Assembly: GCF_000621645.1 (NCBI RefSeq)
Contig: NZ_JHXR01000032.1
Coordinates: 1-20,192, forward strand
DNA: 20,192 nt
Reading direction: 5' to 3'
Source: Vibrio cholerae ATCC 14035
GTDB lineage: Bacteria; Pseudomonadota; Gammaproteobacteria; Enterobacterales; Vibrionaceae
Shown here: positions 1,156 through 19,050 of the stretch, piece after piece
Layout: each line of letters opens with the position of its first letter
Position numbering within the stretch: the stretch's first letter is position 1
Notes under the pieces: model-generated
Databases searched by the model: none
Told to the model about the DNA's origin: nothing
What the model saw: only the letters and a program-made list of their open reading frames with translations
Program-made: the position numbers and the translations under genes

Positions 1156-2814
1156 ATGCCAAAACTTTACATATTTAGACGAGTATCTAGTAAACGCCAA
1201 ACCAACAAAACAGGTTTAAAGATACAAGTTCGCCCTGAAACTGTAGAGCGTTTATTGTCTGAACATGGTTTATCAGAGGTTGTTGATCTTGGGGCTGAGG
1301 TTGCCAGTGCAAGCAAAGGTAAGCATATCGAAGAAGGGAGTATTTTAAAACGCTTTTTAATGAAATGTGAGCGCGGAGAAATTGAACAAGGGTCAATACT
1401 CGCTGTTTATTCCCTCGACCGTCTAAGCCGCCTTGAGAAGCTTGGACTGGCTAAGAGTCTAATCTACTTGCCGATTACAAACAACGGCGTGAGTATATTC
1501 GGTGAAATAGACAATTTCCTATACAAACCCCACGATGTTTTGAGTGAAATATTATCAAGCTTAGTGTTTGAGCGTGCAGCCGAAGAGAGCCGAGCAAAGA
1601 AAAACCGTAACATTGACAGTTTAGCGGCTAACCTCGCACAGTATCAGCGAGATGGACAATACACAACAAAACTGGGTAAATCTCCTAGTTGGATAAATCA
1701 CAAAACAGGTAAGCTTAACGAAGAGGCTGTATTGTGGCGTGAGGTGATTAATTGTTATACAAGTGGACAATATAAAAACTTATCCGCATTGCATACAGCT
1801 ATGCAATTGGCAATACCCTACAACACATTGAGCAAGGTTATTAATAACGCTCACAAAACGCTTATAGGGACAAAGGTTATTAAGGGTGTGGAGCTTGCAG
1901 AATTTTATGAGCCATTGTTAACACAAGAGGAATACAACCGTTTGTTGATTTATGTCCGACAAATGGGAACTGGTAAAGGTAAAGCTATTGCCACCACTAA
2001 AACCGAGAATATCTGGCTATTGAAGGGATTAGGAGAATGTCCTCAATGCGGTAGTTTGTGCGGGAGCTTCAAGAATGGTGCAAGTGTTAAAGATAAGGTG
2101 AGGTATAACTACCGATGCAATGCAGCCATAAACAAGCATTGTGATAGTCCCACGTATAACCTAAACCCTATAGAGGCTATCGTAACGCTGTTATCAGCCG
2201 ACTATTTGCATGAAGTTAGCCAAAGGGAAACCAACACCGAACTAAACGCTAAAATTGAAGCTATGCAGGTAGAGGTTGAACGGTTAGAAACACAATTAGA
2301 CCAAGCAACACAAGCCTTAAATACCTTTTTCAGCCCTGAGTTGGCACAAGCCATACCAAAATACCGAGAACAACTAGAAACCGCCCAAAACGAACTACAG
2401 ACACTATTAGCATTAGCTTCTAACCACACACCAATTAATGAAAGCTTATTATCAGCAGAGATTATATTAGACAAAGCTAACCCTGAAAGGGTGAAGCTTG
2501 TTAAATTGTTGCAAGGTTGTATTAATCGCGTGATTGTTACACGTAAGAGTGTTAAAAAGGGTGACATACGATTTAACCCAAAGATTTACACAGGCTGCGA
2601 TTACTCTCTGTTGTGCGTAAGGGTGGAATTTATAGATGGGAATATTAGGGTGTTTGATAGTGTGCTTAGGGACAACCTACGTTTAAATTTAAGTGTTAGC
2701 GATGGCACAAGATCAATTGGTTTAGAAAACTTTCATAGATTTAGCCGAAGGTTGAGAGAATACGATTTGATAAAATATTGTGTGATAAATAACCGCAAGC
2801 TGAAAATCACGTAA
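1156..2814 (+). CDS. int: Large serine recombinase (integrase)
   Basis: N-terminal catalytic motif YIFRRVSSKRQ and YSLDRLSRL. Cys-rich zinc-ribbon CPQCGS...YRCNAAINKHC. Long coiled coil (ELNAKIEAMQVEVERLETQLDQATQAL...ETAQNELQTLLA). About 550 aa and adjacent to attL. I prefer ATG 1156 (MPKLYIF) over the track's GTG 1144. Confidence 0.92.
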   Translation: MPKLYIFRRVSSKRQTNKTGLKIQVRPETVERLLSEHGLSEVVDLGAEVASASKGKHIEEGSILKRFLMKCERGEIEQGSILAVYSLDRLSRLEKLGLAKSLIYLPITNNGVSIFGEIDNFLYKPHDVLSEILSSLVFERAAEESRAKKNRNIDSLAANLAQYQRDGQYTTKLGKSPSWINHKTGKLNEEAVLWREVINCYTSGQYKNLSALHTAMQLAIPYNTLSKVINNAHKTLIGTKVIKGVELAEFYEPLLTQEEYNRLLIYVRQMGTGKGKAIATTKTENIWLLKGLGECPQCGSLCGSFKNGASVKDKVRYNYRCNAAINKHCDSPTYNLNPIEAIVTLLSADYLHEVSQRETNTELNAKIEAMQVEVERLETQLDQATQALNTFFSPELAQAIPKYREQLETAQNELQTLLALASNHTPINESLLSAEIILDKANPERVKLVKLLQGCINRVIVTRKSVKKGDIRFNPKIYTGCDYSLLCVRVEFIDGNIRVFDSVLRDNLRLNLSVSDGTRSIGLENFHRFSRRLREYDLIKYCVINNRKLKIT

Positions 2815-2848
2815 GAAAAAGACCGCCCTATTAAGGCGGTTTCTTTTA
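2815..2848. terminator. Bidirectional intrinsic terminator between convergent int and the leftward operon
   Basis: AAAAAG-ACCGCC-ctattaa-GGCGGT-TTCTTTT. The A-run and T-run flank a 6-bp GC stem, so it should work on both strands. Confidence 0.8.
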
Positions 2849-3265
2849 TGTGTTTAGAAAACCGTAGACAGTAGTTGTCCATGTTCTACCTGTCTTAGGG
2901 TTAAGTAGTGTTATTGGTGTCTTAGACGCACCGAACCACTCCCCAACCTCACCACCAAAACCTAGTAATACATAACCCTTTTGGACACAATTCCGCTGAA
3001 CCAAGATATGATACTGGTTTGGGGAATATTTGTAGCGACCACTGCAGGGACACGGCACTCTCTCATTGCAAACAAGATTACTTTTGGTTGATGTAAAACC
3101 ATCCGGAAATAACACTTCATCCACACTACAAATAGAACACTCAACCGTGAATACTGCATTACGTCCACTAGTTTGATCGGTGATACCCGTTACTGTTAGT
3201 GTGCCGCCCTTGGGTGTATGAAACTGCTCCCCGATAAACTCACGTTGTAATCTCGTAATTTTCAT
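2846..3265 (-). CDS. Homing-endonuclease-type DNA-binding protein without a catalytic domain (candidate repressor)
   Basis: AAGGAA RBS. The pattern FIGEQFHTPKGGTLTVTG, then CSIC...(19)...CNERVPCPC, then YVLLGFGG...TLLNPKTGRTW...VYGFL resembles the N-terminal Zn-ribbon/DNA-binding modules that precede T5orf172/GIY-YIG catalytic domains in phage homing endonucleases. At 139 aa it has no room for a nuclease domain. Confidence 0.5.
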   Translation of the reverse strand: MKITRLQREFIGEQFHTPKGGTLTVTGITDQTSGRNAVFTVECSICSVDEVLFPDGFTSTKSNLVCNERVPCPCSGRYKYSPNQYHILVQRNCVQKGYVLLGFGGEVGEWFGASKTPITLLNPKTGRTWTTTVYGFLNT

Positions 3266-3300
3266 ATTTCCTTTCTCTATTCTTCTTTTGTTGTTATTTG

Positions 3301-3702
3301 TTATTTTGAATCAATCAATTCGATCATTAATTTGAAAGTTTCTGAATTGATAGCTTGCCAAGTAATGCCACTGCCATACGTGTTTGCTTTAGCTGTAGTG
3401 GTGGTATAAGCCTTGATAAAATTATGTAGTATGTCGTTGAAAATGCACTTATTTTCTTCTGTTAACCACCGCTTGAAATAATCATGATGCAGTTCGACAA
3501 GTTGTTTTATTTCTACAATTGTTTGTGGTGGGATAAGCGAGATTAAACTCATTCGCACTTGATTGCTTTGCCCCACTAAATCCTCTACACGAAAACCCAA
3601 TGCATCCACAAAGGCGCAAGTAATATCATGGTATTGTAGAGGGAGAAGGAGGCGGTTATATTCGTCATATTCAAAATTAAAAGTTTGCGCTGTCATGTTC
3701 AT
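3301..3702 (-). CDS. Hypothetical protein (133 aa)
   Basis: AAGGAA RBS; tight operon spacing with its neighbours; no recognisable motif. Confidence 0.7.
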   Translation of the reverse strand: MNMTAQTFNFEYDEYNRLLLPLQYHDITCAFVDALGFRVEDLVGQSNQVRMSLISLIPPQTIVEIKQLVELHHDYFKRWLTEENKCIFNDILHNFIKAYTTTTAKANTYGSGITWQAINSETFKLMIELIDSK

Positions 3703-3716
3703 AGTTCCTTATATTA

Positions 3717-4094
3717 TTAAAACTTGGTTGATTTAAATTGACGTGGATCGAATGGTTTGGGAGGTGTATTAGGTGTAGTTGTTGGTTGTTGTCCACCTTC
3801 TACAGCCTCCACTGCTTGCACTTTCTTCAGCAATTCCTCTAGATCTGCAACAACCTTGCTCAAGTGTTTCTGTTCATTCAATACAATCTTGATTGCATCG
3901 GATTGACCTTTAGTTAATTCGATCTCGCCTTTGCAAGCTTTGATTAGTTGTAACATGATCCCGTCATAGGCTTTATTGATGCGACCTAGTGCCTTATTGC
4001 TACCTTTGGCAGCTTCTAGCAGGGTGTCGAGGTGATTGTCCAAGGAGGCTTTGATATTGTCGTTTGATTTATACACTGGATATACATTACTCAT
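3717..4094 (-). CDS. Coiled-coil protein with Thr/Pro-rich C-terminal tail
   Basis: The start at 4094 (MSNVYPVYK) has an AAGGAA RBS and avoids overlap with the upstream gene; the track's start at 4124 is the alternative. C-terminus is QQPTTTPNTPPKPFDPRQFKSTKF. Confidence 0.7.
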   Translation of the reverse strand: MSNVYPVYKSNDNIKASLDNHLDTLLEAAKGSNKALGRINKAYDGIMLQLIKACKGEIELTKGQSDAIKIVLNEQKHLSKVVADLEELLKKVQAVEAVEGGQQPTTTPNTPPKPFDPRQFKSTKF

Positions 4095-4110
4095 TTTTAT
4101 ATGTTCCTTA

Positions 4111-4386
4111 TTATATGATTTCATGGAATTGGTAGAGGCGGTCGGTTTCTTCCGATAAGGTTTTTACAATACTGTTATATGTTGAACGAATTTTAGTAAT
4201 TCGATTAACACTCAATGTTGTCCCTGTTTCCGCTTTAACGATATTTGCAATTGTGGCTCGTGGGATATTCAAACCACTTAGGCACACTACCAATTTAGTT
4301 ACATTATTGGTGCGAGTTTCTGACATTAGTGACATACCCAAACCAATAATATCGTTTTGAATCTTACTTAAAATTTTACTGCTCAC
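4111..4386 (-). CDS. Small protein, possible HTH regulator; first gene of the leftward operon
   Basis: GTG start with AAGGAA upstream. GLNIPRATIANIVKAETGTTLSVNRITKIR is HTH-like. Sits downstream of the minus-strand promoter at 4658..4687 and a ~265-nt leader. Confidence 0.6.
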   Translation of the reverse strand: MSSKILSKIQNDIIGLGMSLMSETRTNNVTKLVVCLSGLNIPRATIANIVKAETGTTLSVNRITKIRSTYNSIVKTLSEETDRLYQFHEII

Positions 4387-4415
4387 TTTATATAGTTTTC
4401 CTTATGTTGTTTGTT

Positions 4416-4448
4416 GTTAACTTTACAAGTTAGGGGGTTAACTTTACA
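4416..4448 (-). repeat. Two exact 12-bp direct repeats GTTAACTTTACA, 21 bp apart, in the leader of the leftward operon
   Basis: Copies at 4416..4427 and 4437..4448; each contains the GTTAAC palindrome. They lie 30-60 nt upstream of the start at 4386. Confidence 0.8.
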
Positions 4449-4650
4449 CCCATAAATTAACCGTCCTATAAGGGCTAGGTGAGGTTTTAGAGATTAGACG
4501 GCGTATTATATTGAGGATTATTTAGAGCTTGTTGTGGACGCTTGGAGAAGCGTTATATACCCCCTATACCCTACCCCCTAACTAAAACTGAGGAATTGAC
4601 GAGTTTAAAGGGGAGTTGTGGATGTATAACAGGAAGATTTCCTACCCTTA

Positions 4651-4690
4651 TATTATCATTATAGCATTTAATGAGAATCATTATCAATAG
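4651..4690 (-). promoter_or_regulatory. Sigma-70 extended -10 promoter for the leftward operon, with an overlapping Fur-box-like operator
   Basis: Minus strand reads TTGATA (4687..4682), 18 nt, TGcTATAAT (4666..4658). The module is near-identical to 11966..11998 on the plus strand. 4667..4685 (TTTAATGAGAATCATTATC) matches the 19-bp Fur consensus GATAATGATAATCATTATC at 16 of 19 positions. Confidence 0.7.
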
Positions 4691-5405
4691 GTATTAGTAA
4701 AAAGGTGATAGTTTTAAGCCAATATTATCAACAAATATCTATCACCTTGTAATTATAACAAGTGATATTGTTTTAACATGGATATTAGGACTACCGCTAA
4801 AATTTCAGAAAATTATAAAAAATTTTATAGCAGGTAATAAATTGAGGGCTAAACCATTATGAAACCTAGAGATAATATCCATATGAGGGAGAGGGTGTGA
4901 GGTGGGGTAAGGTAAAATTATACAAATTGAGCAAGAGCTGCTAAGCCCACCCACTCCACCCCTTTACACTACTTATACATTTTTCTTGCATATCCATGCA
5001 CAGGTGTATTTCTCCCCTATCGGGACAATAATTCCACTCATAATCAAAGATTAAATTATGGCGCACTGAGGTGTAATCTCTTACAACCATTGATACATAA
5101 GGGTTTGAGTGCGATTACGTGCGCCTATTATGCGTTATTGGTAGATATTAGAACCATTATGTTAAATGAGTGATTTCTAATATATAGGTTAGAGGTGTCT
5201 AGTTTGCATTTTCACAAGTTTACTGTCTGCAAAAGGTGGTAAAACCTCATAGATAACTGAGTAAATACTTGCACCAATTTAGTGCAATAAAAAGTAATGT
5301 AAGAATCTGCACTTTGAATATGATTCGCTGTAAATCTCCCACTTTTCACAATTCCCATAATTTAACCTAAATATTCGTGACTGAGTGTTGTATGCATACA
5401 TATTC

Positions 5406-5451
5406 TTTGCATTTTGCAAATCATAATGATAACTATTTGCATTTTGCAAAT
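5406..5451. repeat. Two exact 16-bp direct repeats TTTGCATTTTGCAAAT, each an internal dyad (TTTGCA/TGCAAA), 30 bp apart
   Basis: Copies at 5406..5421 and 5436..5451. Related TTTGCATT cores occur at about 5203 and about 6985. Confidence 0.85.
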
Positions 5452-5812
5452 ATGAGTTTACACTTATGTGCGGCGATGGTGTTTGTGATTTGTTTAGCAC
5501 CTCTTCTGTATATTATACATAACCTTACCCCCTAACAATCCTCTTTGCATATGTGTGGCATACTCCATATGTGTATATAACAGCTTATATGCTTTTCTAT
5601 CCTCATTTAAACACGCTCAGAACGTCATTTAACGCATCTTATCACCACCTTAATATGATTGCCTTATGTATCATTAAAACCTCTTAGAATCGCTTACAGG
5701 AGCTTACAACGTGTTGTAGGAGCGTTTATAACAAGTTATAAAGTGCTTTTAGATAGATTCCGAGAATATACGGTAACTTACCACCTACCCAATCTCTTAT
5801 ATCTCCACTTAT

Positions 5813-5860
5813 ACGTTAGTATTACTGACGTTAGTATTACCCCCAACGCAATAATGCGTT
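5813..5860. repeat. Tandem 13-bp repeat ACGTTAGTATTAC (x2, 15-bp period) followed by the palindrome AACGCAataaTGCGTT
   Basis: Repeats at 5813..5825 and 5828..5840; palindrome at 5845..5860. Confidence 0.85.
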
Positions 5861-6003
5861 TACCCACACATATTTGTGTATCCCACAATAACGCAACAGA
5901 ACGCATTTTAAACGTGTTTACACACAACCCAATACATTCGTATGCCTTTGCATACAAAACTCAATACAGAGCGTTACAGAGCGTTTTACACAAGAAATGT
6001 GTA

Positions 6004-6094
6004 TCCACACAAGGAATACTCCCACACACAAGAATTGTGTAATCCACACAAATAAAGAATTCCACACAAAGAATATTGTTTGCACAAAAGGGAT
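6004..6094 (+). repeat. Iteron-like array, five copies of TCCACACAA-GAAT with ~18-20 bp period
   Basis: Copies start at 6004 (TCCACACAAGGAATA), 6021 (CCCACACACAAGAATT), 6043 (TCCACACAAATAAAGAATT), 6061 (TCCACACAAAGAATA) and 6079 (degenerate, TTGCACAAAAGGGATA). Confidence 0.75.
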
Positions 6095-6106
6095 AACCTT
6101 CACAGG

Positions 6107-6641
6107 TTAGACGAACACAACATACAAGGAGCATAGCGACACAGTAGGTTGTTTAGTGAGTCTTACCTATACACACTCAATAAACGTTAGTTTATGCAAC
6201 ACACAATGTTATAGCGGAGCTATTAAGTATGCACATTAGTTACGTAGTAACAAAGGATGCCCACAAGAGGTGCTTTAGCACTTAGACGAACAAAGTGAGT
6301 CTATTATTTGTAAGCGAAGCGCACACACAACCGAAGGGCGTAGGCGTTAGCCGTGAGGTGAGTGTTAACGAACTTATTACTTATAGTTCTCTTGTCTTTA
6401 AATCTTTACATGTAAAAACAAAAACAAAGATCTTTAAATCTTTTCTTGTGTGGTTCTTATGCACTTAGGAGCGTAAGCGAGTTAGTGCACACATAAGCGC
6501 AAGCGTTGTCACGTAGTGAGCACAGGCGAACGTAGTGTTATAGTTATGTGAGCTTATGCGAACTTAGTGTTATTTGGTTTTAAGCCTCATGGCGTTTGAA
6601 TGTTTTAGTTTGGACGAAGTCCTTATGAACTAAGCGAAGCG
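6107..6641. repeat. Degenerate array of (A/G)CGAA(C/G) and TTAG(T) motifs flanking an AT-rich core
   Basis: Exact 11-mers TTAGACGAACA (6107..6117, 6282..6292) and TAAGCGAAGCG (6311..6321, 6631..6641). 16-mers GCGAACgTAGTGTTAT and GCGAACtTAGTGTTAT at 6526..6541 and 6558..6573. Many looser copies. Confidence 0.6.
6395..6443. repeat. AT-rich core bracketed by exact 13-bp direct repeats TCTTTAAATCTTT (candidate DNA-unwinding element)
   Basis: Repeats at 6395..6407 and 6431..6443. The spacer is ACATGTAAAAACAAAAACAAAGA and contains a GATC. Confidence 0.6.
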
Positions 6642-6657
6642 TGTTCTTTATAGTTAG

Positions 6658-6760
6658 TGGGGTGATTTTCATACCTATAAAGTATGTTTATATGGATGAT
6701 TTTCAGCCCTATAAGATTCTCTAAGCTTCTATTTATATGGGTGATTTTCATACCTATAAA
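6658..6760 (+). repeat. Three ~25-bp iterons TATGG(G/A)TGATTTTCA(T/G)(A/C)CCTATAA
   Basis: Copies at 6658..6681, 6691..6715 and 6736..6760. Copies 1 and 3 share the 21-nt core GGTGATTTTCATACCTATAAA exactly; copy 2 has 4 substitutions. Spacing is 33 and 45 bp. Confidence 0.8.
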
Positions 6761-7000
6761 TTCATACAGTAGTACAGTTTACGGACTGCTTCCTACTTTC
6801 ATCCTCCCGATGCACACGCGGCAATGTGCGCCGAGACGGAATATTTGCAGCCCCAGAAAATCAATCGCTTACCAGATTTGTTTAGCGTAGAGGTGCTAAA
6901 AGGCATCACATAATCATATGTTACGTTACATACCTTAACCATCTGACCGCAATTTATTGGTTTGGTGTTTATACGGTGTGCATATTTGCATTGGGGGTTG

Positions 7001-7064
7001 TTGAACGTTTTTGTTCAAATCATCTCACTGTCCATTGATTGTTGTATATTTTTCATGTTATAAT
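7001..7064 (+). promoter_or_regulatory. Promoter of the winged-helix regulator gene, with an upstream palindromic operator candidate
   Basis: TTGATT (7035..7040), 18 nt, TGtTATAAT (7056..7064). The palindrome TTGAAC-gttttt-GTTCAA at 7001..7018 ends 16 bp upstream of the -35. Confidence 0.6.
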
Positions 7065-7100
7065 GGTCATAATAACAACAATCATTGAGGAGCCAACCTT

Positions 7101-7814
7101 ATGCAACACAATACCCCATACCTACCACACCAATCTCTACAACTACAATCGCGCCTAATCAAACTTTATCAGAATGTTGGTTTGTTTGTCCCTAAACTCA
7201 CTTTTTGTTTTAGTGTAGACAATGCAGAAACAGATACTCACTACTATAATGTGTGGTTTTCATCCAACGTTGATGGTGAGTTGATCATCGGTGAATGTAA
7301 TACATACGAAAAGGCGACTTTAATCGCCCAACAATGGCTTGATAACACAACAGACGAGGATTTACTTCACCTTGTGCAAAGTGTCTTATCTAGAGGCTAT
7401 ACAGACGGATTTAGTGAATGTATCGAAGGTGTTAGACAGGCAGACAAACTCACCAGTAACGAATTGCTTGTTTTAGAATGCCTACGACCTCAACTAGATT
7501 TTGAAGAAGGTTCAGAAAGTGGTCAGTATCCTTGGAGCAATACAGACATTAGTGACAAGACAGGCATTCACCGTTCAAACCTTCACCGTGTGCTTAAAAG
7601 TTTGGTTAACAAAGGTTTGATTGTAGAAGAAACCGTCAAACGTGATGTATGGGCAAGCTTGAAGAAGTGCGGCCATGTTCAGAAAGATGTATTGGTTTAT
7701 TACCCTGTTGCTACCCGTGAAGAAGATCTTGAGGTGATGGAAAACTGGCACGAATGGCGAGCTATCCGACAAAAGGAAGCAATGCAGAAGTGGCGAGCGA
7801 TGTTGTCTAGTTAA
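7101..7814 (+). CDS. Winged-helix (MarR-like) DNA-binding regulator with an orphan N-terminal domain
   Basis: GAGGAG RBS. The C-terminal segment NTDISDKTGIHRSNLHRVLKSLVNKGLIVEETVKRD is a typical wHTH recognition helix plus wing. Confidence 0.75.
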   Translation: MQHNTPYLPHQSLQLQSRLIKLYQNVGLFVPKLTFCFSVDNAETDTHYYNVWFSSNVDGELIIGECNTYEKATLIAQQWLDNTTDEDLLHLVQSVLSRGYTDGFSECIEGVRQADKLTSNELLVLECLRPQLDFEEGSESGQYPWSNTDISDKTGIHRSNLHRVLKSLVNKGLIVEETVKRDVWASLKKCGHVQKDVLVYYPVATREEDLEVMENWHEWRAIRQKEAMQKWRAMLSS

Positions 7815-7843
7815 TAACTGCTAGTTAATAACTGCTAGTTAAC
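7807..7843 (+). repeat. 14-bp tandem repeat CTAGTTAATAACTG, 2.6 copies, starting inside the last codons of the regulator gene
   Basis: Copies at 7807..7820 and 7821..7834, plus partial 7835..7843 (CTAGTTAAC). The first copy contains the TAA stop codon (7812..7814). Confidence 0.85.
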
Positions 7844-7919
7844 GAACACCGCCCAATTCTGGAACAGAACACCCCTAACACCCCCAACACAAAAAGATCC
7901 TGAATGCAATAAAAAAGTG

Positions 7920-7949
7920 TTGAAGTTGTCGGGCGGAACATGCTAATAT
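7920..7949 (+). promoter_or_regulatory. Extended -10 promoter (upstream member of a tandem pair)
   Basis: TTGAAG (7920..7925), 18 nt, TGcTAATAT (7941..7949). Followed by TTAACTTAGTGAGG, resembling the initial transcribed region of the other promoters. Confidence 0.5.
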
Positions 7950-8013
7950 TAACTTAGTGAGGCGTGAAGCACAAAAAGATGAATAATATTTTCAAAAAAG
8001 TTGTGTTTTACTA

Positions 8014-8043
8014 TTTACTATGCTAGTCGAAAACTGCTATAAT
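8014..8043 (+). promoter_or_regulatory. Extended -10 promoter for the replication operon
   Basis: TTTACT/TTACTA (8014..8020), 17-18 nt, TGcTATAAT (8035..8043). GCTATAATTAATA is identical to the -10 region at 11991..12003. Confidence 0.55.
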
Positions 8044-8199
8044 TAATACATGAGGTAATAAAAGACACCTTTTCACGGTAGTGACATACCCCTGAACAAA
8101 CTTTCATAACACAATCTAACCTACTCCATACGTGCATTGCTTGCGATGAATCACACGTTGTGGGGTTTTCGTGTATCCGCAGGATAAGGAAACAAAACT

Positions 8200-8436
8200 A
8201 TGAAATATGAAATTCCACCATCATTAAATTTGAAAGAACTACCACTAACAACACAGTATCAACTGAACCGCATGTTAAACGGTGAGATTCGCCCGTCAGC
8301 AATTCGACGTAATAAAGCTAACTACAAGCTTAAAGGTGATAAAGATAAGGTGTTCGAGAATGGTTTAGCCGTCCGACTATTTAACCTTATTAAAGAATAC
8401 AACAATGTCGAAAGTGTTGAGAGTGAGGAGGTTTAA
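8200..8436 (+). CDS. Hypothetical protein (78 aa)
   Basis: AAGGAA RBS; first gene after the tandem promoters. Confidence 0.65.
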   Translation: MKYEIPPSLNLKELPLTTQYQLNRMLNGEIRPSAIRRNKANYKLKGDKDKVFENGLAVRLFNLIKEYNNVESVESEEV

Positions 8437-8442
8437 CAGATT

Positions 8443-8625
8443 ATGAAAATTCAATTAAAACACCCATACGATAAACTAGCGGGCGAGTTAGCAGATCTTA
8501 CAGGACTAAGCCCCACTCAATTAACTATCCAACTGATGCAAGAGCTACAAATCAAAATTTCTGAAACAAATGCCCAAGAAGAGGCAAAGGAGAATAATAA
8601 CAATGTCAAAGTTTTACCAAATTAA
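8443..8625 (+). CDS. Hypothetical small protein (60 aa)
   Basis: GAGGAGG RBS. LADLTGLSPTQLTIQLMQEL could be a small DNA-binding fold. The 3' end overlaps repA by 23 nt. Confidence 0.55.
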   Translation: MKIQLKHPYDKLAGELADLTGLSPTQLTIQLMQELQIKISETNAQEEAKENNNNVKVLPN

Positions 8626-9643
8626 TACAACACTTCTAGAAAGTAATGAAGCTGTAAACAAACAAACAGGTGAGGTTGTCCCACTTTCACCAGAAACAAA
8701 GCTTGTATATGCCTATATGCTAAATCAATATCGAATGCATAGAAAATACGGCAACCGTAGATATACTGAATCATGGGATAAAATCTTTACAGTGTGTTGT
8801 GATGTGGCTACGCAGAAGCAAAAGAAATTAGCCAAAGAACTTACAACACTAGGCTTGATAGAAGTAATCGGTAACAAAAACGCCTACAAGGTTGTGCATA
8901 GTGTTGAATCTATTATGGAAGCTTGGGAACTTACCAATTCAAAACTTAACACCTTCAAAGATCCTACCCAAACAACCAAGCGGAAAGAATCTAAGAAACA
9001 ACGCCTCAATAAATGGGAAGAAGATAAGCGCAGCAAAGGCGAATGGAAGGATTTTAAAGAACCTCACCTAGAAGAGATGCAAGATTGTAACGGCGCAGAA
9101 AGCTACTTTACAGAGCAACCACCTGTAGAAGCTTACGAGCAAGATTACCGCCCTATCGCTGGTGATACCGTTAACTTTGGTGTATTAGCTGATATTGATA
9201 CTTCTGGCGCACCAACGTCTGATCAGTGGGATTGTCCACCAGAAGATGAACCAGAGTCACCTACCCCTGCAAAGGATGAACCTCAAGAAGTTGTTGAAGT
9301 GGTTACGCCGCAAGTGGTGGAGCATGTTACCCCTGTAGTGTGTGGTGATAAAAGTAAACTGTTGAAGTGCTTCCGACCAAACACAGATATTAGTGAAATT
9401 GATATAAGCGGAAAAGGGATCGGATTCTTTGCCAAACCTTTACACTTGAAAGAGTGCGATAAAGATACAGCAAGGCAATATCTCAAGGCTATAAAAGCGT
9501 ACTATTGGGATCAATACAATCCTGATAATGCAACGATAGCTAACATGGTTAGTTGGTTGACTTGTTCAGTATGCAGCAATTTAACTAACGAGCTAGGCTA
9601 CTGCCTCGATCCTAATTGCTCTAGTAATAACCTCCCCTTCTAA
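8603..9643 (+). CDS. repA: RepA_N-family replication initiator
   Basis: The N-terminus FYQINTTLL...PLSPETKLVYAYMLNQYRMHRKYG...WDKIF...KKLAKELTTLGLIEVIGNK follows the RepA_N pattern (F/Y-x-hydrophobic, LS-x-x-AKLLY, embedded wHTH ending in GLI). An acidic Pro-rich linker (PPEDEPESPTPAKDEPQEVVEVV) and a Cys-rich C-terminus (CSVCSN...CLDPNC) follow. Start at ATG 8603 (AAGGAG 10 nt upstream) is preferred over the track's 8570. Confidence 0.75.
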   Translation: MSKFYQINTTLLESNEAVNKQTGEVVPLSPETKLVYAYMLNQYRMHRKYGNRRYTESWDKIFTVCCDVATQKQKKLAKELTTLGLIEVIGNKNAYKVVHSVESIMEAWELTNSKLNTFKDPTQTTKRKESKKQRLNKWEEDKRSKGEWKDFKEPHLEEMQDCNGAESYFTEQPPVEAYEQDYRPIAGDTVNFGVLADIDTSGAPTSDQWDCPPEDEPESPTPAKDEPQEVVEVVTPQVVEHVTPVVCGDKSKLLKCFRPNTDISEIDISGKGIGFFAKPLHLKECDKDTARQYLKAIKAYYWDQYNPDNATIANMVSWLTCSVCSNLTNELGYCLDPNCSSNNLPF

Positions 9644-9727
9644 GCTTACCCAATAAATCAACAATTTGAATGCACTACCTTAGTAAGGTTGGTGTGATAA
9701 CTATTTTACTAATATGAGGAATAAATA

Positions 9728-10579
9728 ATGTCATTTACAAAATCTGAAATCCTAGAAGCCTTGCAAAGTAACCTAGAGATTACAAATATCACCTGCAACA
9801 CTGCAACATTAAAATTTAAGTATGAAAATACACCTTTTGAAATACTACCCTCTAAAATGTGTATTAAATCTAAGAATAAAGGTTTTGCAGGTAGCTACCG
9901 AACATTTAAGAGTTTATCGGAGTTGGTTCAACTAGTCAAATCTTGTGAACGTTTTATCCTTGGTGACGGCCTTGTTGATACAATCCCCGACCTACTTTAC
10001 AAAGCTAAGGTTAGAGATGCTCAGTTTATCGAAGATTGTTATTACAAAGAGAGTGCCTACTACAAACTAAAACGAGAACTTTCAAACAATTCTGACTACG
10101 CTAAGAAAAGTTTTAAGGAGATAAAAGATTCTTGTGACGATTTTAAAAATTGGTGGGATAGAATTGACCTCCCTGACAACTGGGAAGATTTTAAAACATG
10201 GTGTGACACTAATAATTGCTCTACACAAATCGCACTAGAGTTAATCTTGAGAAGATTACGTTTTCTTCCTTCAGATTCAGGCGTTAAAGCGGTGAGATTT
10301 TGCAATATCTTCTATTGGTATAACGGCACATATCGTAATGCAAAAGGTAAAACCCACTACCAATCTAAAAACTTGTTACATGTGATCAGATTGCAGGATA
10401 GTTTCAATCCCTTAGAAGGAGCTAACATTGACGATTATTCACTCTTACCTACAGACAAGGCAACGTTGACGAAAGAAATTGCAATGTTTTTAAGTAATAC
10501 TGAGTTTTATAAGTTAGATATGCAAGCTTACACTAAAGGTTATAAAGATAGTTATGTCCTTGACACCAAAGCTCTATAA
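9728..10579 (+). CDS. Hypothetical protein (283 aa), Trp/Cys-rich central segment
   Basis: GAGGA RBS; operon context downstream of repA; no family recognised. Confidence 0.7.
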   Translation: MSFTKSEILEALQSNLEITNITCNTATLKFKYENTPFEILPSKMCIKSKNKGFAGSYRTFKSLSELVQLVKSCERFILGDGLVDTIPDLLYKAKVRDAQFIEDCYYKESAYYKLKRELSNNSDYAKKSFKEIKDSCDDFKNWWDRIDLPDNWEDFKTWCDTNNCSTQIALELILRRLRFLPSDSGVKAVRFCNIFYWYNGTYRNAKGKTHYQSKNLLHVIRLQDSFNPLEGANIDDYSLLPTDKATLTKEIAMFLSNTEFYKLDMQAYTKGYKDSYVLDTKAL

Positions 10580-10732
10580 AGCTTGAACCTACAAAGGTTA
10601 CGCCGCTTAAAACCCCACACAACACGCTCTAACACAAACAAACACACTACCCCATTGATGCAGCGTTAAACGCTTCTACGGCTTTCTACGCTCGTTATTC
10701 AGGGGTATATAACAATATAAGGAACTAAATAC

Positions 10733-10885
10733 ATGCAACAATTCACAATAGACAGTATCACCCTTGCCGCCATGATTCGCATTTGCACAATCGAAACATT
10801 AACGGAAGCGCAGCGCCTTGAACTTATCAAAGCTCACTTACTCAATATTAAAACACCAACCACTGATGAATGGGACGAATTTTAA
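10733..10885 (+). CDS. Micro-ORF, 50 aa (not in the ORF track)
   Basis: AAGGAA RBS; reads MQQFTIDSITLAAMIRICTIETLTEAQRLELIKAHLLNIKTPTTDEWDEF. Confidence 0.5.
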   Translation: MQQFTIDSITLAAMIRICTIETLTEAQRLELIKAHLLNIKTPTTDEWDEF

Positions 10886-10886
10886 A

Positions 10887-10967
10887 ATGAAAAAGAGATT
10901 ACGAATCCGCAAAATTAGACGTAGCCGACTACGTTTTAACTATAAACTATTACAAGGAAATAAATAA
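10887..10967 (+). CDS. Micro-ORF, 26-aa Arg/Lys-rich peptide (speculative)
   Basis: Reads MKKRLRIRKIRRSRLRFNYKLLQGNK. The ATG lies 1 nt after the previous stop and its own stop overlaps the next ATG (TAATG), which suggests coupling. No clear RBS. Confidence 0.25.
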   Translation: MKKRLRIRKIRRSRLRFNYKLLQGNK

Positions 10968-11113
10968 TGTACCAGATTGAAGACGGACAAGCGTATATTA
11001 TCGTCAGTAGGGCAGAATTCGACATTTACACCGCTTTAAGTGATGCAGGTAAAAAAGAATATTTTGATGAGTTAACACACAACCGCCCTATCTATAGCTT
11101 GATCGAAGATTAA
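10967..11113 (+). CDS. Micro-ORF, 48 aa
   Basis: AAGGAA RBS; reads MYQIEDGQAYIIVSRAEFDIYTALSDAGKKEYFDELTHNRPIYSLIED. Confidence 0.5.
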   Translation: MYQIEDGQAYIIVSRAEFDIYTALSDAGKKEYFDELTHNRPIYSLIED

Positions 11114-11145
11114 ACAACATAACAACAATAAGGAAAGGAAAAATT

Positions 11146-11262
11146 ATGAACATCCAAGACGTGACAGCAGCAATTGATCTTCTAACCATTGCATATGTGT
11201 TTATCAAATCGCATCCATATTACACCGAGTTTATGCAATATCTTCTACTAAACCAACAATAA
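11146..11262 (+). CDS. Micro-ORF, 38 aa
   Basis: AAGGAAAGGA RBS; reads MNIQDVTAAIDLLTIAYVFIKSHPYYTEFMQYLLLNQQ. Confidence 0.45.
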   Translation: MNIQDVTAAIDLLTIAYVFIKSHPYYTEFMQYLLLNQQ

Positions 11263-11278
11263 TAATAAGGAGAATAAT

Positions 11279-11617
11279 ATGAACCCAGATTATGTTAAGC
11301 TGAAACTAAAACAAGGCCAGATTGACTCCATTAATAAAAAGATCGCCAAACTAGCCAAGAAAAACACACCAAATGCTGTTGTTAAAAAGCTTACTACCCA
11401 ATGCTTACAAGGTTTGCTGACATATGATCACGAAGTTAAAGTATTGATGGAGTATGTTGTAGCAAATGCAGATTGTTTTGTGGATGAACAGGTAAAGTGC
11501 GCTAAAAAGTATCTAGCAGCTAAAACCGCACCTTATCCTATTCTGTTCTTGATGGACTTTTATAATGCAGGATCAAGTGACGGCTGGAATTATAAAAATG
11601 TGCTATTAGGTATTTAA
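11279..11617 (+). CDS. Hypothetical protein (112 aa)
   Basis: AAGGAG RBS; operon context. Confidence 0.7.
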   Translation: MNPDYVKLKLKQGQIDSINKKIAKLAKKNTPNAVVKKLTTQCLQGLLTYDHEVKVLMEYVVANADCFVDEQVKCAKKYLAAKTAPYPILFLMDFYNAGSSDGWNYKNVLLGI

Positions 11618-11638
11618 CAAACTAAGAGGATTATTAAA

Positions 11639-11938
11639 ATGTACCAAGTGGAATTTAAGACAAAAGAAGGTGCACGTTACACCGTGGTATTCACACAATA
11701 TGTTTGTGCCATGCCAAATCCCGACACCTTGCATGTTACTAGCGACCGTTTCGATTTTAAAATTACCCGTATTAAAAATGACCGCAGTATTACTCAGGAT
11801 GTAAATTTCAATTTAAAAATCGACGGTAAGGTTATCCCTGCAACCCAATACGTTGTAAGTGGGCAAAACAGTAAACGCACAAGCAAGCAGACGGATGTAA
11901 TACTATCGAACTATTACAACTGGGTGGATTTAATTTAA
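11639..11938 (+). CDS. Hypothetical protein (99 aa)
   Basis: AAGAGGA RBS; last gene of the replication-side operon. Confidence 0.7.
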   Translation: MYQVEFKTKEGARYTVVFTQYVCAMPNPDTLHVTSDRFDFKITRIKNDRSITQDVNFNLKIDGKVIPATQYVVSGQNSKRTSKQTDVILSNYYNWVDLI

Positions 11939-11965
11939 ACATTTTCACTTATGACTTGAAAATAG

Positions 11966-11998
11966 TTGTTGATAATGATTCTCGTTTAATGCTATAAT
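11966..11998 (+). promoter_or_regulatory. Extended -10 promoter, the plus-strand twin of the 4658..4690 module
   Basis: TTGATA (11969..11974), 18 nt, TGcTATAAT (11990..11998). 11969..11998 differs from the reverse complement of 4658..4687 at 2 positions. 11971..11989 matches the Fur consensus at 14 of 19 positions. Confidence 0.7.
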
Positions 11999-12004
11999 TA
12001 ATAT

Positions 12005-12229
12005 GTAGGGGAGGATAACCTTACCTACTTTTGATTATATGTTTCTCCTTACATTCATATAATACACCTCTTCAAATTGCGCTGTCACGCAATCTTAGCT
12101 AACTGCTATTGCATACCCAATAGTATTCTCCCCTGTTCATAACCATTGTTAGCGTGGTGAGGATTCCTTATGTTTGTTGTTATGTAAATTAATAAAGGTG
12201 GTTCCCTTCTTCAACCACTTTTATTTTTA
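12005..12229 (+). ncRNA. Candidate ~225-nt structured non-coding transcript, either an sRNA or a terminated leader of the late operon
   Basis: Bounded by the promoter at 11969..11998 and the terminator at 12195..12229. No ORF longer than 7 codons. Hairpins: GTAGG-GG-AGG-ATAA-CCT-TA-CCTAC (12005..12028), ATTGCG-ctgtca-CGCAAT (12076..12093), CTATTG-catacc-CAATAG (12106..12123). Confidence 0.55.
12195..12229 (+). terminator. Intrinsic terminator
   Basis: AAGGTGGTT-cccttcttc-AACCACTT(T): a 9-bp stem with one G-U pair, followed by a T-rich tail (TTATTTTT). Confidence 0.75.
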
Positions 12230-12391
12230 CCATAGCATTCAAGTCATAAGTGTAAATTGTAAATTGTGAAAGGTCGATTCGACAGTAAATCGGCCACTTT
12301 AAAAACCCTATTACACTAGCAAATGACAGACTGTTAGCTGTAAATATTTTATAACAACAATAAATAATAATAATTACAAGGAAATACGAAC

Positions 12392-12868
12392 ATGCCTTAC
12401 TACAGTAAAAATGCAGAACGTGCCGCTTTAATTGGTTGCACACTACAACAACTTAAAAAACTTAACGTGCAGTTTTTAAATATTAAATATAGATGCGGTC
12501 GATTAAAAGGTTATGAAACCTGCCAGTTTAAATTAGGAACCTTTGACGATTTTATTGAATGGATTGCCTCGCAAGGTGGATACAAAACAAGTCCTCACGG
12601 TCATGCATACCACGTCAGCCGCATCCGAGATCAAGGTGATTACGAATATTCAAACATCAGATTTTGTAGTCACGCAGAGAATTTAAGAGAGACTGCTCAT
12701 TTTTGGTTAGTTACCGACATTAAAACCTCACGTCAGGAACTATTTCAAGGAAATTTAACAACCAAGCTAAAAGAATTATTTGATGTGAGTGGCTATGGTG
12801 CTTATAAAGCCGCTGAAAGTGGTCGTTTATACAAAGGCCGATTTAAAATTGACAAGTTAAGTATTTAA
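12392..12868 (+). CDS. HNH-type homing-endonuclease-like nuclease
   Basis: AAGGAA RBS. HGHAYHVSRIRDQGDYEYSNIRFCSHAENLRE fits the H-N-N/H beta-beta-alpha-metal motif (H...N...H-x-EN). The C-terminal FDVSGYGAYKAAESGRLYKGRFKI resembles the small DNA-binding modules at the C-termini of phage homing endonucleases. Confidence 0.65.
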   Translation: MPYYSKNAERAALIGCTLQQLKKLNVQFLNIKYRCGRLKGYETCQFKLGTFDDFIEWIASQGGYKTSPHGHAYHVSRIRDQGDYEYSNIRFCSHAENLRETAHFWLVTDIKTSRQELFQGNLTTKLKELFDVSGYGAYKAAESGRLYKGRFKIDKLSI

Positions 12869-12880
12869 AAAGAGGAACAC

Positions 12881-13105
12881 ATGATAACCATTGAACTTTT
12901 AAGCAGTAAGCTTGCAATGCTAAGCCCAACAGAGCGACAAGCATTAAGGCTAATGCTAACCACAAACTTAACTAATAGTGAAATTAACAAAGAGCTAGGC
13001 GTTAGTCACAACTATGTTTACTGGCTTAAAAATGAAAGCCCACACGCTGAAACTGTGCAAATGTTTTTACAACTGAATAACAAATTTAAGGAAACAAAAG
13101 AATGA
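12881..13105 (+). CDS. Small LuxR / sigma-70-region-4-type HTH protein (74 aa)
   Basis: AAGAGGA RBS. LSPTERQALRLMLTTNLTNSEINKELGVSHNYVYWLK follows the LSxRExxVLxL...xEIAxxLgiSxxTV pattern. Confidence 0.65.
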   Translation: MITIELLSSKLAMLSPTERQALRLMLTTNLTNSEINKELGVSHNYVYWLKNESPHAETVQMFLQLNNKFKETKE

Positions 13106-13860
13106 TTACGATTAATTTAAAACTTGGTAATAGTGAAAGTATTACACGCACATATAGCCAGATTAGTATTGAAGAGTCTCGTATTATCCTTGATACCCCT
13201 ACCTCAACAGTTAACGAGACAGTATTAAGTTTTGCAAATGGTGTGCTTAGTAGTATTACGGTGACGGAACCGAAGCAAGGGGTTAGCACAATGCCGCAAG
13301 CAACCACCCGTAGTGCCGTATATGCGACGATTAGTAACAAGGGGTTGGTGCTTAACTTTACAACATACGCCATATTAAGTGCAATGCTAAGTGGTATTAG
13401 TGCGAATGCCGAGATTGTGAAGGGTTTAAAACAAAAACCTGCACAGCAACAGGTTGTTAAAAGCGCTGCACTAGGTAAAGAAACACCGGAACAAACACAA
13501 CAACGCTTACAACGTGCATTAGCAGCTAAACAAAGCAAACAAGCTAATACTGGTGTTAATAAGCAGCAAATTTACGATGAGTTAAATAAAGCTCGCAACC
13601 CTATCAAATCTGGTAAAGAACTAGCCAAAATTGCAAACACTAAACAAACAGAATTGGTTAAGTGTGGTGCAATCATGAAAGGTAATAGCGAATGGGAAGA
13701 ATTGGTTAAATACCTACAAGGTGGTGATTTTACCTACGATGCATTTGACGCCTTTTCCGATGTTTTAAAAGAGCGTGATTATTCAACATGTCTAACAAAA
13801 ATTCGTGAATTAGCAAACCGCTTAAACATTGTTAACGGTGTTATTCACCTAATCAAATAA
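13102..13860 (+). CDS. Hypothetical protein (252 aa), Gln/Lys-rich central linker
   Basis: ATGA overlap with the upstream gene; AAGGAA RBS; no family recognised. Confidence 0.7.
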   Translation: MITINLKLGNSESITRTYSQISIEESRIILDTPTSTVNETVLSFANGVLSSITVTEPKQGVSTMPQATTRSAVYATISNKGLVLNFTTYAILSAMLSGISANAEIVKGLKQKPAQQQVVKSAALGKETPEQTQQRLQRALAAKQSKQANTGVNKQQIYDELNKARNPIKSGKELAKIANTKQTELVKCGAIMKGNSEWEELVKYLQGGDFTYDAFDAFSDVLKERDYSTCLTKIRELANRLNIVNGVIHLIK

Positions 13861-13953
13861 AAGAATTTTGGGAGTGTGGTGTGTGCTCTCAGATGTTTAA
13901 GCAATACGCACCAAACATAACAACACAATACAAAATATAAGGAAAAATGAACT

Positions 13954-14838
13954 ATGACTACTACTACCAACATTTTCGACCTAGCCGCTGTAATTGCAGA
14001 ATACAAAGCAGGTTTCGAGCAATATAAAGCGGACAATAAACAATATAATGCTGATGCATACCGCCGCAAAATCGAAAGTATTAATAGCGATGCCGCACTA
14101 ACTAATGGTGCTTACCGTGATTTTGCTTATGGTTCTCAACTGTTTGAGGGTGATAAAACCCTAACAGAAATTGCCGAGATGCTTAAAACACGCACCGCAC
14201 AAACGGAACGAGAAGACGAACAAGGCTTTATTTACCCACACGTTGTTATTCAGTTTGTGTCCCCGATGACAGCTACACAATACTACGGTTTGATTGGGGA
14301 GTGTATCAAGCTAGGGTTTGAAGTGTGTCCAGACTGGCGCTTACATGTTGGAACTGGTCGCCAATTTCCCGCATGTCGATTGGTGCGCAAAGCTGAATGG
14401 TATAAGCCACATAACGAGAAGCTGATGGAAAGTCGCATTGCAGAAGCTGAAAAACACGAAGCGGAACGCCTGAAAGCTGAATACTTCAACGAACAGCGTG
14501 TGCAAGCATATGTGGAACAAGCACAACGTAAGTTTATGGCTGCACAAGCACAACAAGCCGCCATTAGCTTATCAGCCGCTATCTCTCGTGAGTTGTATGC
14601 ATCAAGTGGTTTGAGTGATGATGACCTTGCAATCGTTAACCAAAGCGATGTATGGGCGTTTAATACCCTAGCCGCACAACTGCAAGAAAAAGACCCTAAT
14701 GTAATTTCTGCAAGCTTACAATCACTAGGTTACGCAAAAGGTAAGCATAAACTTTCGGACGGTAAACAAGCTACCTTGTGGGTGAAAGATGGTGCAGATG
14801 TCACAGCACTAACCCTAGAAAGTAAGTATATTCAATAA
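13954..14838 (+). CDS. Hypothetical protein (294 aa) with a central coiled coil
   Basis: AAGGAA RBS. The segment ESRIAEAEKHEAERLKAEYFNEQRVQAYVEQAQRKFMAAQAQQAA is coiled-coil-like. No family recognised. Confidence 0.7.
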   Translation: MTTTTNIFDLAAVIAEYKAGFEQYKADNKQYNADAYRRKIESINSDAALTNGAYRDFAYGSQLFEGDKTLTEIAEMLKTRTAQTEREDEQGFIYPHVVIQFVSPMTATQYYGLIGECIKLGFEVCPDWRLHVGTGRQFPACRLVRKAEWYKPHNEKLMESRIAEAEKHEAERLKAEYFNEQRVQAYVEQAQRKFMAAQAQQAAISLSAAISRELYASSGLSDDDLAIVNQSDVWAFNTLAAQLQEKDPNVISASLQSLGYAKGKHKLSDGKQATLWVKDGADVTALTLESKYIQ

Positions 14839-14891
14839 CTCACATACTTTAGGGGAGATTGCTCCCCTACAATAATAAGATAAAAGGAAAT

Positions 14892-15101
14892 ATGAACATG
14901 AAAATGACAGCAGAACAATTTAACGAGCGTTTAGCACACATTGTAAAATGTTGGGTGGAGTTTGGTTACGAAGTGGAAACTTGGGAAGAATTTTTGGCCG
15001 CTGAATTAAAATGTATGGAGTTTCAAGCAGAATTAGTCGCCGAAGCAGAACAGCGTGTGCAGTATGCTTTAAATTCTTTAAAAACATTACAACTTAAATA
15101 A
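14892..15101 (+). CDS. Hypothetical small protein (69 aa)
   Basis: ATG 14892 (MNMKMTAEQF) follows AAAGGAAAT. The track's start at 14859 lacks an RBS. Confidence 0.6.
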   Translation: MNMKMTAEQFNERLAHIVKCWVEFGYEVETWEEFLAAELKCMEFQAELVAEAEQRVQYALNSLKTLQLK

Positions 15102-15112
15102 GAGAGGGAAAT

Positions 15113-15589
15113 ATGAAATATAGTGACACCATTATTAATAAAACTTTTACAACCGATAAAGGCGATAAAATTGTAAAAGCCGTAACACTACATGCTATTA
15201 AACAAGGTATGTTGCAATTTAAATTAGCTCGCGTTTTAGCCCCTGCGATGGGCGGCGTAGTCGATGGTATGGCAAGCAAAGATCGCACCTTAATGTACTC
15301 AACAGTGTTTAACCTGATTGCAGCAAAAGCGACAGAAGAGTTGTTTGAGGAACTACAAACTCTACTACTAGGCAGTATTTTAGATAGTAGTGGCGAACCT
15401 TTAGAAACTGTTGAACGTATTAACACTTATTTTGCTAATACCAGTATTCACCAATTTGATCTTTTAGTGTGGTTGTTTGAAAAACAACTACTAGAACCCC
15501 TCCTTAAATCTTCTGCCTTATCTGGTTTTATGCCAAAACTTAAAACTATTGCAGATAACTTTATGCAGGAAAATAAAGAGGTGGAATAA
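15113..15589 (+). CDS. Possible tail assembly chaperone-like protein
   Basis: GAGAGGGA RBS. It sits upstream of the tape-measure-like gene. The KQGMLQFKLARVLAPAMGGVVDG segment resembles some phage tail-assembly-chaperone families; the call rests on weak motif and position only. Confidence 0.4.
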   Translation: MKYSDTIINKTFTTDKGDKIVKAVTLHAIKQGMLQFKLARVLAPAMGGVVDGMASKDRTLMYSTVFNLIAAKATEELFEELQTLLLGSILDSSGEPLETVERINTYFANTSIHQFDLLVWLFEKQLLEPLLKSSALSGFMPKLKTIADNFMQENKEVE

Positions 15590-16143: not shown

Positions 16144-16160
16144 TAATAAGAGTGTAACCT

Positions 16161-18985: not shown

Positions 18986-18990
18986 TATTA

Positions 18991-19020
18991 AAACCCTGCC
19001 TTTTTGGTGGGGTTTATTCA
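18991..19020 (+). terminator. Intrinsic terminator closing the rightward operon
   Basis: ACCCTGCC-ttttt-GGTGGGGT: an 8-bp stem with two G-U pairs, followed by TTATT. Confidence 0.55.
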
Positions 19021-19050
19021 TAAGTTATGTGACAAATATCACAATTTTCT

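Follow-up and report, generated by a model that had tools for sequence, protein, structure and literature searches.

The 2714-bp stretch at positions 4387-7100 of a Vibrio cholerae ATCC 14035 contig (NZ_JHXR01000032.1, assembly GCF_000621645.1; the window is the whole stretch analyzed, 20,192 nucleotides) corresponds, with a probability that we put at about 0.9, to the published non-coding region (NCR) of a PLE5-type V. cholerae PLE, a satellite of phage ICP1. It is exactly the gap between two divergent genes and represents 13.4% of the window. Its position, between the divergent gpsA/orf5 cluster and orf7, is syntenic with that in PLE1 (L002) and PLE4 (L006), and the window displays the PLE gene order, with a CapR domain, a serine recombinase, a DUF6945 RepA and a winged helix-turn-helix (HTH) gene; the CapR-domain protein (Pfam) is encoded by the last gene of the leftward cluster. 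The genes involved are:

1144-2814, large serine recombinase gene
4111-4386, minus strand, gpsA/orf5, 91 aa, GTG start, left neighbour of the NCR
7101-7814, plus strand, marR-like orf7, winged-HTH, 237 aa, ATG start, right neighbour of the NCR
8603-9643 (DUF6945 protein called at 8570-9643), plus strand, repA (DUF6945 and PDB 4RO3 matches), trans-acting partner of the iterons and located outside the NCR

Many proteins of the window, including the two that flank the NCR, have identical counterparts in V. cholerae O395 (ACP113xx, ABQ18xxx), and O395 chromosome II (CP001236) is the PLE5 reference (PMC5665941). Window positions 1279-20192 (18.9 kb) are matched at 100% identity by another V. cholerae contig, GCA_025505075.1. 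Copies of a ~120-bp VCR-like repeat bracket the element (69-188, 19094-19183 and 19596-19719); the same repeat is also found in the chromosomal DNA beside other PLE loci, and its presence at the element ends is consistent with integration into the superintegron. Gene order, O395 protein identities, the identical contig and the VCR-like flanks therefore designate the window as a PLE5 in the superintegron. On GCA_025505075.1, toxin-antitoxin and acetyltransferase cassettes come next.

We compared the NCR among six PLE types: the PLE5 of the window, PLE1 (L002), PLE4 (L006), PLE2 (L009, with its insertion sequence) and two further types (L008 and L011). The comparison NCRs were found by exact-protein look-ups. 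Species-representative genomes, searched with the Orf7 protein and an invariant 24-mer, returned no PLE relatives, and the comparisons therefore all come from V. cholerae contigs. L002 holds all the published PLE1 repeats exactly and thus serves as the PLE1 reference; the same repeats (PMC7145576, supplementary figure S3) were placed in the window by approximate matching. The PLE5 and PLE1 NCRs align end to end with 84% identity and indels. They share their place between orf5 and orf7, their 2.7-kb length, the repeat-3 iterons, the RepA N-terminal domain, the 14-bp core of the packaging (pac) site, the core of the P_CL promoter and a conserved quantitative PCR amplicon. They differ in repeats 1 and 2 (two copies each in PLE1, one each in PLE5), in repeat 4 (absent from the PLE5 NCR by approximate matching) and in the gap between iterons 2 and 3 (14 bp vs 16 bp in PLE5). 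Among PLE types the NCR is a mosaic of segments present or absent, with the insertion sequence in PLE2. The identity, positions and conservation of the sites described below are established by these comparisons.

The first-pass annotation of this DNA, made from the sequence alone, had proposed that the region carries a replication origin, which is borne out by three iterons and their surroundings:

6647-6681, 6687-6715 and 6732-6760, plus strand, three RepA iterons of ~30 bp, semi-palindromic around TGATTTTCA
6367-6456, AT-rich element (~22% GC), two copies of TCTTTAAATCTTT flanking TTTACATGTAAAAACAAAAACAAAG, candidate DNA-unwinding element
6764-6795, plus strand, single copy of a 32-nt L008-type repeat, directly right of the third iteron

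The iterons, separated by 5 and 16 bp, each match PLE1 repeat 3 with 1-3 mismatches (PMC7145576, supplementary figure S3). A weak fourth 'iteron' at 4423-4456, with 65% identity, was treated as a chance match. In PLE1, RepA binds repeat 3 in electrophoretic mobility shift assays and repeat 3 is required for replication; the right-hand part, NCR3, with its repeat 3 is alone needed, deletions NCR1 and NCR2 leave replication unaffected, and the NCR together with RepA replicates a minimal element during ICP1 infection (PMC7145576). The cognate RepA of the window carries the matching RepA_N-type N-terminal domain: positions 8603-8990 match PDB 4RO3 (a 'hypothetical protein', E = 3.8e-70), which is also the structure employed for PLE RepA in published work. 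Overall identity to PLE1 RepA is 85%, the N-terminal ~130 residues, which form the DNA-binding domain, being nearly identical. The origin and the N-terminal domain of RepA change together, as a module, and PLE1, PLE4 and PLE5 share one such module; the ICP1 nuclease Odn cuts origins of this module through the iterons, and for PLE5 both the cleavage of an origin PCR product and a delta-ori strain have been reported (PMC8263062).

The iteron stretch (~6507-6790) of the PLE5 NCR is shared with PLE1 and PLE4 only, other repeat families lying at the same place in L008 and L009, in agreement with the published modular exchange of origin and RepA (PMC8263062). PLE2/PLE3-type and other origin modules keep the NCR layout, with promoter, pac core, AT-rich element and orf7 promoter conserved, but have unrelated repeats in place of the iterons (3 x 32 nt in L008, 4 x ~23 nt in L009) and another RepA N-terminal domain, and are reported to be Odn-resistant (PMC8263062). 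The three 32-nt copies at the origin position in L008 (4678-4832) form its presumed iteron array, and the single copy beside the third iteron probably marks the junction of an origin-module exchange. The AT-rich element is 95-100% conserved across PLE types with different iteron modules, which tentatively points to an unwinding or loading element that these types have in common, beside exchangeable specificity modules. Matches to the DnaA box (TTWTNCACA) number 76 in the whole window vs 73 expected, i.e. no enrichment, and only one of them is perfect; ten one-mismatch matches on the plus strand cluster at 5860-6235 and coincide with CACA-rich repeat units. A DnaA-box cluster like that of a classical iteron theta origin is not supported as an enrichment over the whole window. 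The arrangement recalls the RepA_N plasmids pSK41 and pTZ2162 of Staphylococcus aureus, which also have direct repeats whose inverted sub-repeats converge on an A-tract, and iterons bound by a dimeric RepA_N domain (PMC7145576). Unlike in these plasmids, the iterons of PLE are not within repA but in a separate NCR, their sub-repeats are longer, and PLE replication also needs helper-phage functions.

The predicted packaging signal is present as well, in the form of a copy of the ICP1 pac site with its 14-bp core:

4914-5000, plus strand, ICP1 pac-site mimic (relaxed phage search)

Comparing the NCR with phage and plasmid collections at E <= 1e-5 gave no similarity, and the relaxed search alone recovered this match. 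The mimic is 74.7% identical over 87 nt to ICP1 560-645, in the gp1-gp2 intergenic region, and the match is found in 83 Vibrio phage records. The alignment includes identical runs of 18 and 21 bases, and its local score is 44 vs 13.6 +/- 1.3 in shuffles. The core, TGCATATCCATGCA, at 4987-5000, is invariant in the six PLE types, as is the block 4952-4975. In PLE1, the pac site mimicking that of ICP1 covers ~89 bp, 628 bp upstream of orf5, with a published identity to ICP1 of 71%; the 14-bp core is identical to ICP1 and conserved in all PLEs, and deletions in PLE1 and in ComPacT-PLE show that pac, with this core, is required for transduction (10.1101/2024.04.22.590561). The PLE5 NCR displays the same arrangement, an ICP1-like stretch whose 14-bp core lies 601-614 bp (~600 bp) before the start of gpsA/orf5. 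S. aureus pathogenicity islands (SaPIs) and P4 are likewise satellites with their own iteron origin and initiator, in which the helper packaging signal (pac/cos) is copied or redirected. They differ in that the initiator Rep of SaPIs is of the helicase type and that induced SaPIs replicate autonomously, whereas PLE joins pac mimicry to a TerL inhibitor and specifier proteins (10.1101/2024.04.22.590561).

Between the pac mimic and the iterons, ~5000-6640, the NCR contains repeat arrays:

5406-5451, two exact 16-nt copies of TTTGCATTTTGCAAAT, 30 bp apart, each in a 17-bp palindrome, operator-like
5618-5655, plus strand, one copy of PLE1 'repeat 1', identical to the published sequence
5807-5844, plus strand, single copy of PLE1 'repeat 2' with ACGTTAGTATTAC twice, one mismatch to the published sequence
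5865-6095, plus strand, array of ~seven 19-nt units (Tandem Repeats Finder, TRF, periods 19 and 38)
6516-6573, plus strand, two 26-nt direct repeats GTGAGC..GCGAAC.TAGTGTTAT (repeat search)

The TTTGCATTTTGCAAAT pair is kept in PLE1, PLE4 and PLE2 and not in L008 or L011. The 19-nt units, three of which are palindromic (ACACA-N4-5-TGTGT), occur in all six PLE types with variable copy number, and the blocks that interrupt or follow them (5924-5988 and 6092-6160) are kept in all types, the first one containing a hairpin, GTATGCCTTTGCATAC, and two copies of TACAGAGCGT. In the PLE2-type L009 NCR, this conserved hairpin (5941-5956) is found as its reverse complement, GTATGCAAAGGCATAC, with unflipped flanks. 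Further runs invariant in all six types lie at 5090-5103 and 6113-6124. The 26-nt repeats belong to the segment whose makeup changes with the origin module, and have no counterpart in ICP1. A search of ICP1 with the iterons, the hairpin, the TTTGCA operator pair and the 19-nt units likewise gave no meaningful matches, and these elements are therefore not ICP1 mimics. The central arrays look like protein-binding arrays.

These arrays might instead be a functionless recombination scar of module exchange between PLEs, their repeats being by-products of slippage and duplication. We consider this unlikely, yet it is the best of the alternatives. The strong mosaicism of the NCR, the PLE2 insertion sequence, copy numbers that vary for repeats 1, 2 and 4 and for the 19-nt units, and the intact replication of the PLE1 NCR1 and NCR2 deletions (PMC7145576) all speak for it. 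However, central blocks at 5090-5103, 5157-5168, 5924-5988 and 6092-6160 are conserved or invariant in the six PLE types, the palindromic units are spaced by ~19 or 30 bp, as binding sites of dimeric proteins would be, and the published deletions were scored for replication only.

At the left side, the NCR carries an ICP1-inducible promoter in common with the small RNA (sRNA) gene sviR, which heads the gpsA-operon leader and answers to the anticipated helper-sensing site:

4687-4658, minus strand, P_CL promoter of the gpsA-gpsB-gpi-capR operon, TTGATA, 18-nt spacer, TATAAT, extended -10
~4651-4387, minus strand, gpsA-operon leader (5' untranslated region), ~265 nt, start inferred from the -10 position
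4702-4748, inverted repeat AAGGTGATAG-N27-CTATCACCTT just upstream of the P_CL -35, putative function (repeat search)
11969-12230, plus strand, sviR sRNA gene with promoter and terminator, outside the NCR (sequence and P_CL promoter homology)

P_CL is the best sigma-70 promoter match in the NCR (11/12), and its positions 4670-4687 are invariant in the six PLE types; the inverted repeat upstream is partially conserved in the PLE4 and PLE2 types. About 55 nt are common to P_CL and the sviR promoter (11969-12026), including ~25 transcribed nt after the promoter. It has been published that the gpsA-operon leader and SviR have a common, ICP1-inducible promoter, that the leader is possibly a regulatory RNA too, and that it interacts with the orf12 mRNA in Hi-GRIL-seq (10.1101/2022.04.08.487710); RNA-seq detects, in every PLE, a ~200-nt non-coding leader preceding the leftward cluster (PMC7567579). 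The leader contains two copies of GTTAACTTTACA (4416-4427 and 4437-4448), and its sequence varies between PLE groups. Its predicted fold is no more stable than those of shuffles (z = +0.49), which leaves a special RNA structure in the leader unsupported. The promoter, seed, terminator and flanking inverted repeats of sviR lie at 11945-12255, and of this locus the promoter core alone is duplicated in the NCR, consistent with the published location of SviR between two rightward clusters and not in the NCR (10.1101/2022.04.08.487710). Note that the SviR segment 12166-12181 has complementary sites at 4400-4415 (minus), 11255-11270 (plus) and 13076-13091 (plus), positioned at, or a little before, the ribosome-binding regions of gpsA and the open reading frames (ORFs) that start at 11279 and 13102. 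The seed-complement search gave five matches, the segment's own site counted, vs 0.67 expected; it was used because RNA duplex energies of SviR with all 5' regions were uninformative, the targets not standing above background.

A regulatory RNA had also been expected in the region. SviR itself sits outside, at ~11.97-12.23 kb, and what stands is the transcribed ~265-nt leader, proposed as a second regulatory RNA. It is improbable that the NCR mainly yields a trans-acting, SviR-like RNA to whose gene the repeats would belong. The leader does start from the SviR promoter, with similar first ~25 transcribed nt, and does interact with the orf12 mRNA (10.1101/2022.04.08.487710), but SviR maps elsewhere, no Rfam family matches, the leader fold is unremarkable, transcription would cover only ~265 of the 2714 nt, and the leader sequence differs from one PLE group to another.

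P_CL and P_sviR also resemble late promoters of ICP1. Both contain the core TTGATAATGATTCTC[AG]TT-N6-TATAAT (P_CL 4658-4687, minus strand; P_sviR 11969-11998, plus strand), and the P_CL spacer is ATGATTCTCATT. Their -35 and spacer (TTGATAATGATTCTCATT) are identical at 11-15 of 18 positions to several ICP1 promoters, namely the annotated promoters of structural genes (Porf78, Porf84 and Porf120) and those that precede orf126 and the late gp135/136 non-coding transcript:

39105-39133, 45768-45796, 65816-65844, 71139-71167 and 78505-78533 of ICP1 HQ641347, promoters resembled by P_CL and P_sviR

ICP1 promoters of the TTGACA type are identical at only 5-10 of 18 positions. The late or structural class reads TTGATAA.RATT...ATTTCTGTTATAAT, and non-coding DNA of ICP1 has two exact copies of the 13-mer AATGATTCTCATT, at 948 and 80179 (minus strand). 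The promoter classes were drawn after the fact; such a likeness would explain the late, ICP1-dependent firing of both PLE promoters.

Further patches of the NCR match the beginning of the ICP1 genome outside the pac mimic, one of them being colinear with it:

4814-4832, AT palindrome TATAAAAAATTTTATAGCA, invariant in six PLE types
5141-5167, plus strand, patch of putative role matching ICP1 778-804 at 23 of 27 positions, colinear with the pac mimic

The NCR and ICP1 have 70 exact matches of at least 12 nt, ten of which fall in the first 1.1 kb of ICP1, compared to 0.83 (max 4) for shuffled NCRs and 0-2 for other pieces of the element. Beyond the pac mimic, the ICP1-like patches lie at 4643-4654, 4670-4682, 4782-4793, 4812-4826, 5141-5167, 5968-5981, 6239-6253 and 6507-6519, and span ~1.8 kb of the NCR. 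Positions 4812-4826 are identical to ICP1 318-332, and other pairs are 6239-6253 with ICP1 1000-1014, 5968-5981 with 11-24 (inverted) and 4670-4682 with 936-948; 5157-5168 is invariant in the six PLE types. Overall, 63% of the extra patches is invariant among PLE types vs 35% for the whole NCR (p ~0.012). These data raise the rather doubtful possibility that mimicry extends well beyond the 89-bp pac. A late ICP1 origin near the genome end that holds pac was inferred by Barth et al. If both the patches and the late-promoter likeness are real, the NCR would be a composite decoy or sensor of the ICP1 terminal cis region and late promoters, and the palindromic arrays would be binding sites for ICP1 or PLE factors, e.g. 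the MarR-like Orf7. Neither the extended mimicry nor the late-promoter likeness was found stated in the PLE literature cited here.

At the right end of the NCR, a second good promoter match precedes orf7:

7035-7064, plus strand, orf7 promoter, TTGATT, 18-nt spacer, TATAAT
7033-7087, inverted repeat CATTGATTGTTGT/ACAACAATCATTG enclosing the orf7 promoter, just before orf7

Positions 7027-7066 are invariant in the six PLE types, as are 6959-6984. At the other end of orf7, a perfect tandem repeat of CTAGTTAATAACTG (x2.6, 7807-7842) overlaps the gene end, extends beyond it and starts an untranslated stretch ahead of the next rightward cluster, with AACACCCCC x2.6 following at 7868-7890. Degenerate tandem repeats with a 9-nt period, CCAACTACA and AAACCCTAC, lie farther away at 18282-18416, in the 3' part of a 582-aa ORF (16779-18527), and AAACCCTAC can be read with an 18-nt period too.

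The overall composition agrees in part with the first-pass annotation, which had described an ORF-poor 2.7-kb region, ~14% of the length, with at least seven repeat families, palindromes and an AT-rich core. No ORF of the NCR looks coding, and the repeat search and TRF find well above seven families. Exact local direct-repeat pairs (at least 10 nt, within 80 nt) number 8 in the NCR vs 0.29 in shuffles (max 2), a ~25-fold excess, and at most 4 in other 2.7-kb pieces of the element. Palindromes with 8-nt arms are not enriched as a class (15 vs 17 in shuffles), but individual ones occupy plausible regulatory positions and may act as operators. The single AT-rich core turns out to be two patches, 4627-4866 (~24% GC) and 6367-6456 (~22% GC), in a window of 38% GC. 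An Rfam scan of the whole window (E <= 1) gave no family, and a tRNA/tmRNA scan found nothing. The NCR contains 15 ORFs of at least 40 aa, the longest (5659-6042) having 127 aa from a TTG start, a length reached by 2.2% of dinucleotide shuffles (longest ORF 79 aa on average, sd 18). That the NCR hides unannotated protein-coding genes, such as this ORF or small proteins, is highly improbable: although the ORF exceeds 98% of the longest ORFs in shuffles, it reads along the C/A-rich strand, which is poor in stop codons, its codon-usage score (-0.08 per codon) is below those of the 18 real element genes (0.13-0.44), no Shine-Dalgarno sequence or Pfam match was found for it, it is not conserved since the PLE4-type element lacks window 5615-5916, it carries an insertion or duplication in PLE1, and the region is taken to be non-coding in published annotation and RNA-seq work (PMC7145576, PMC7567579), for which reasons we rejected it as a gene.

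Some observations weigh against reading the region as the set of cis sites of a PLE5. About half of it (~5000-6640), with most of the repeat families counted in the first-pass annotation, has no assigned function or demonstrated role. The published PLE1 read-depth peak lies ~1 kb upstream of orf7, left of the iterons, so that the start of replication can be placed only approximately. Nor does the operon leader fold with particular stability. Finally, most experiments used PLE1, whose NCR is only ~84-90% identical with indels.

On the favoured reading, the PLE5 NCR gathers the cis sites that the satellite needs for exploiting ICP1. From the left, P_CL would drive the ~265-nt leader and the packaging and capsid-repression operon gpsA-gpsB-gpi-capR. 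The pac mimic copies part of the ICP1 pac region and the Gps proteins would redirect the ICP1 terminase, so that the latter would package satellite DNA. The variable ~1.4 kb in the center consists of repeat arrays. At the origin, the AT-rich element lies ~200 bp from the iterons, which would be bound by the RepA N-terminal domain, replication being carried out by the ICP1 replisome; the iterons are also the target of Odn. The right end would hold the promoter and operator of the marR-like orf7. RepA binding, the requirement for iterons and pac core and the induction of the promoter by ICP1 were established elsewhere, mainly in PLE1, as was the cleavage of the PLE5 origin by Odn.

The interpretation of the first-pass annotation, i.e. 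an origin, a packaging signal, a helper-responsive promoter and possibly a regulatory leader, is thus supported and is essentially the published one. As the region has been characterized in a sister PLE variant, this is a rediscovery of something already known; what is new here is the PLE5 coordinates and the comparative detail, not a new principle. The NCR is the control hub by which a defensive satellite of epidemic V. cholerae hijacks its helper phage. Since the origin is the target of the counter-defence nuclease Odn, NCR variation, in the form of iteron module swaps and pac similarity, tracks the arms race in cholera patients, and the conserved central blocks and extra ICP1-like patches bear on how PLE senses the ICP1 late phase and competes for packaging.

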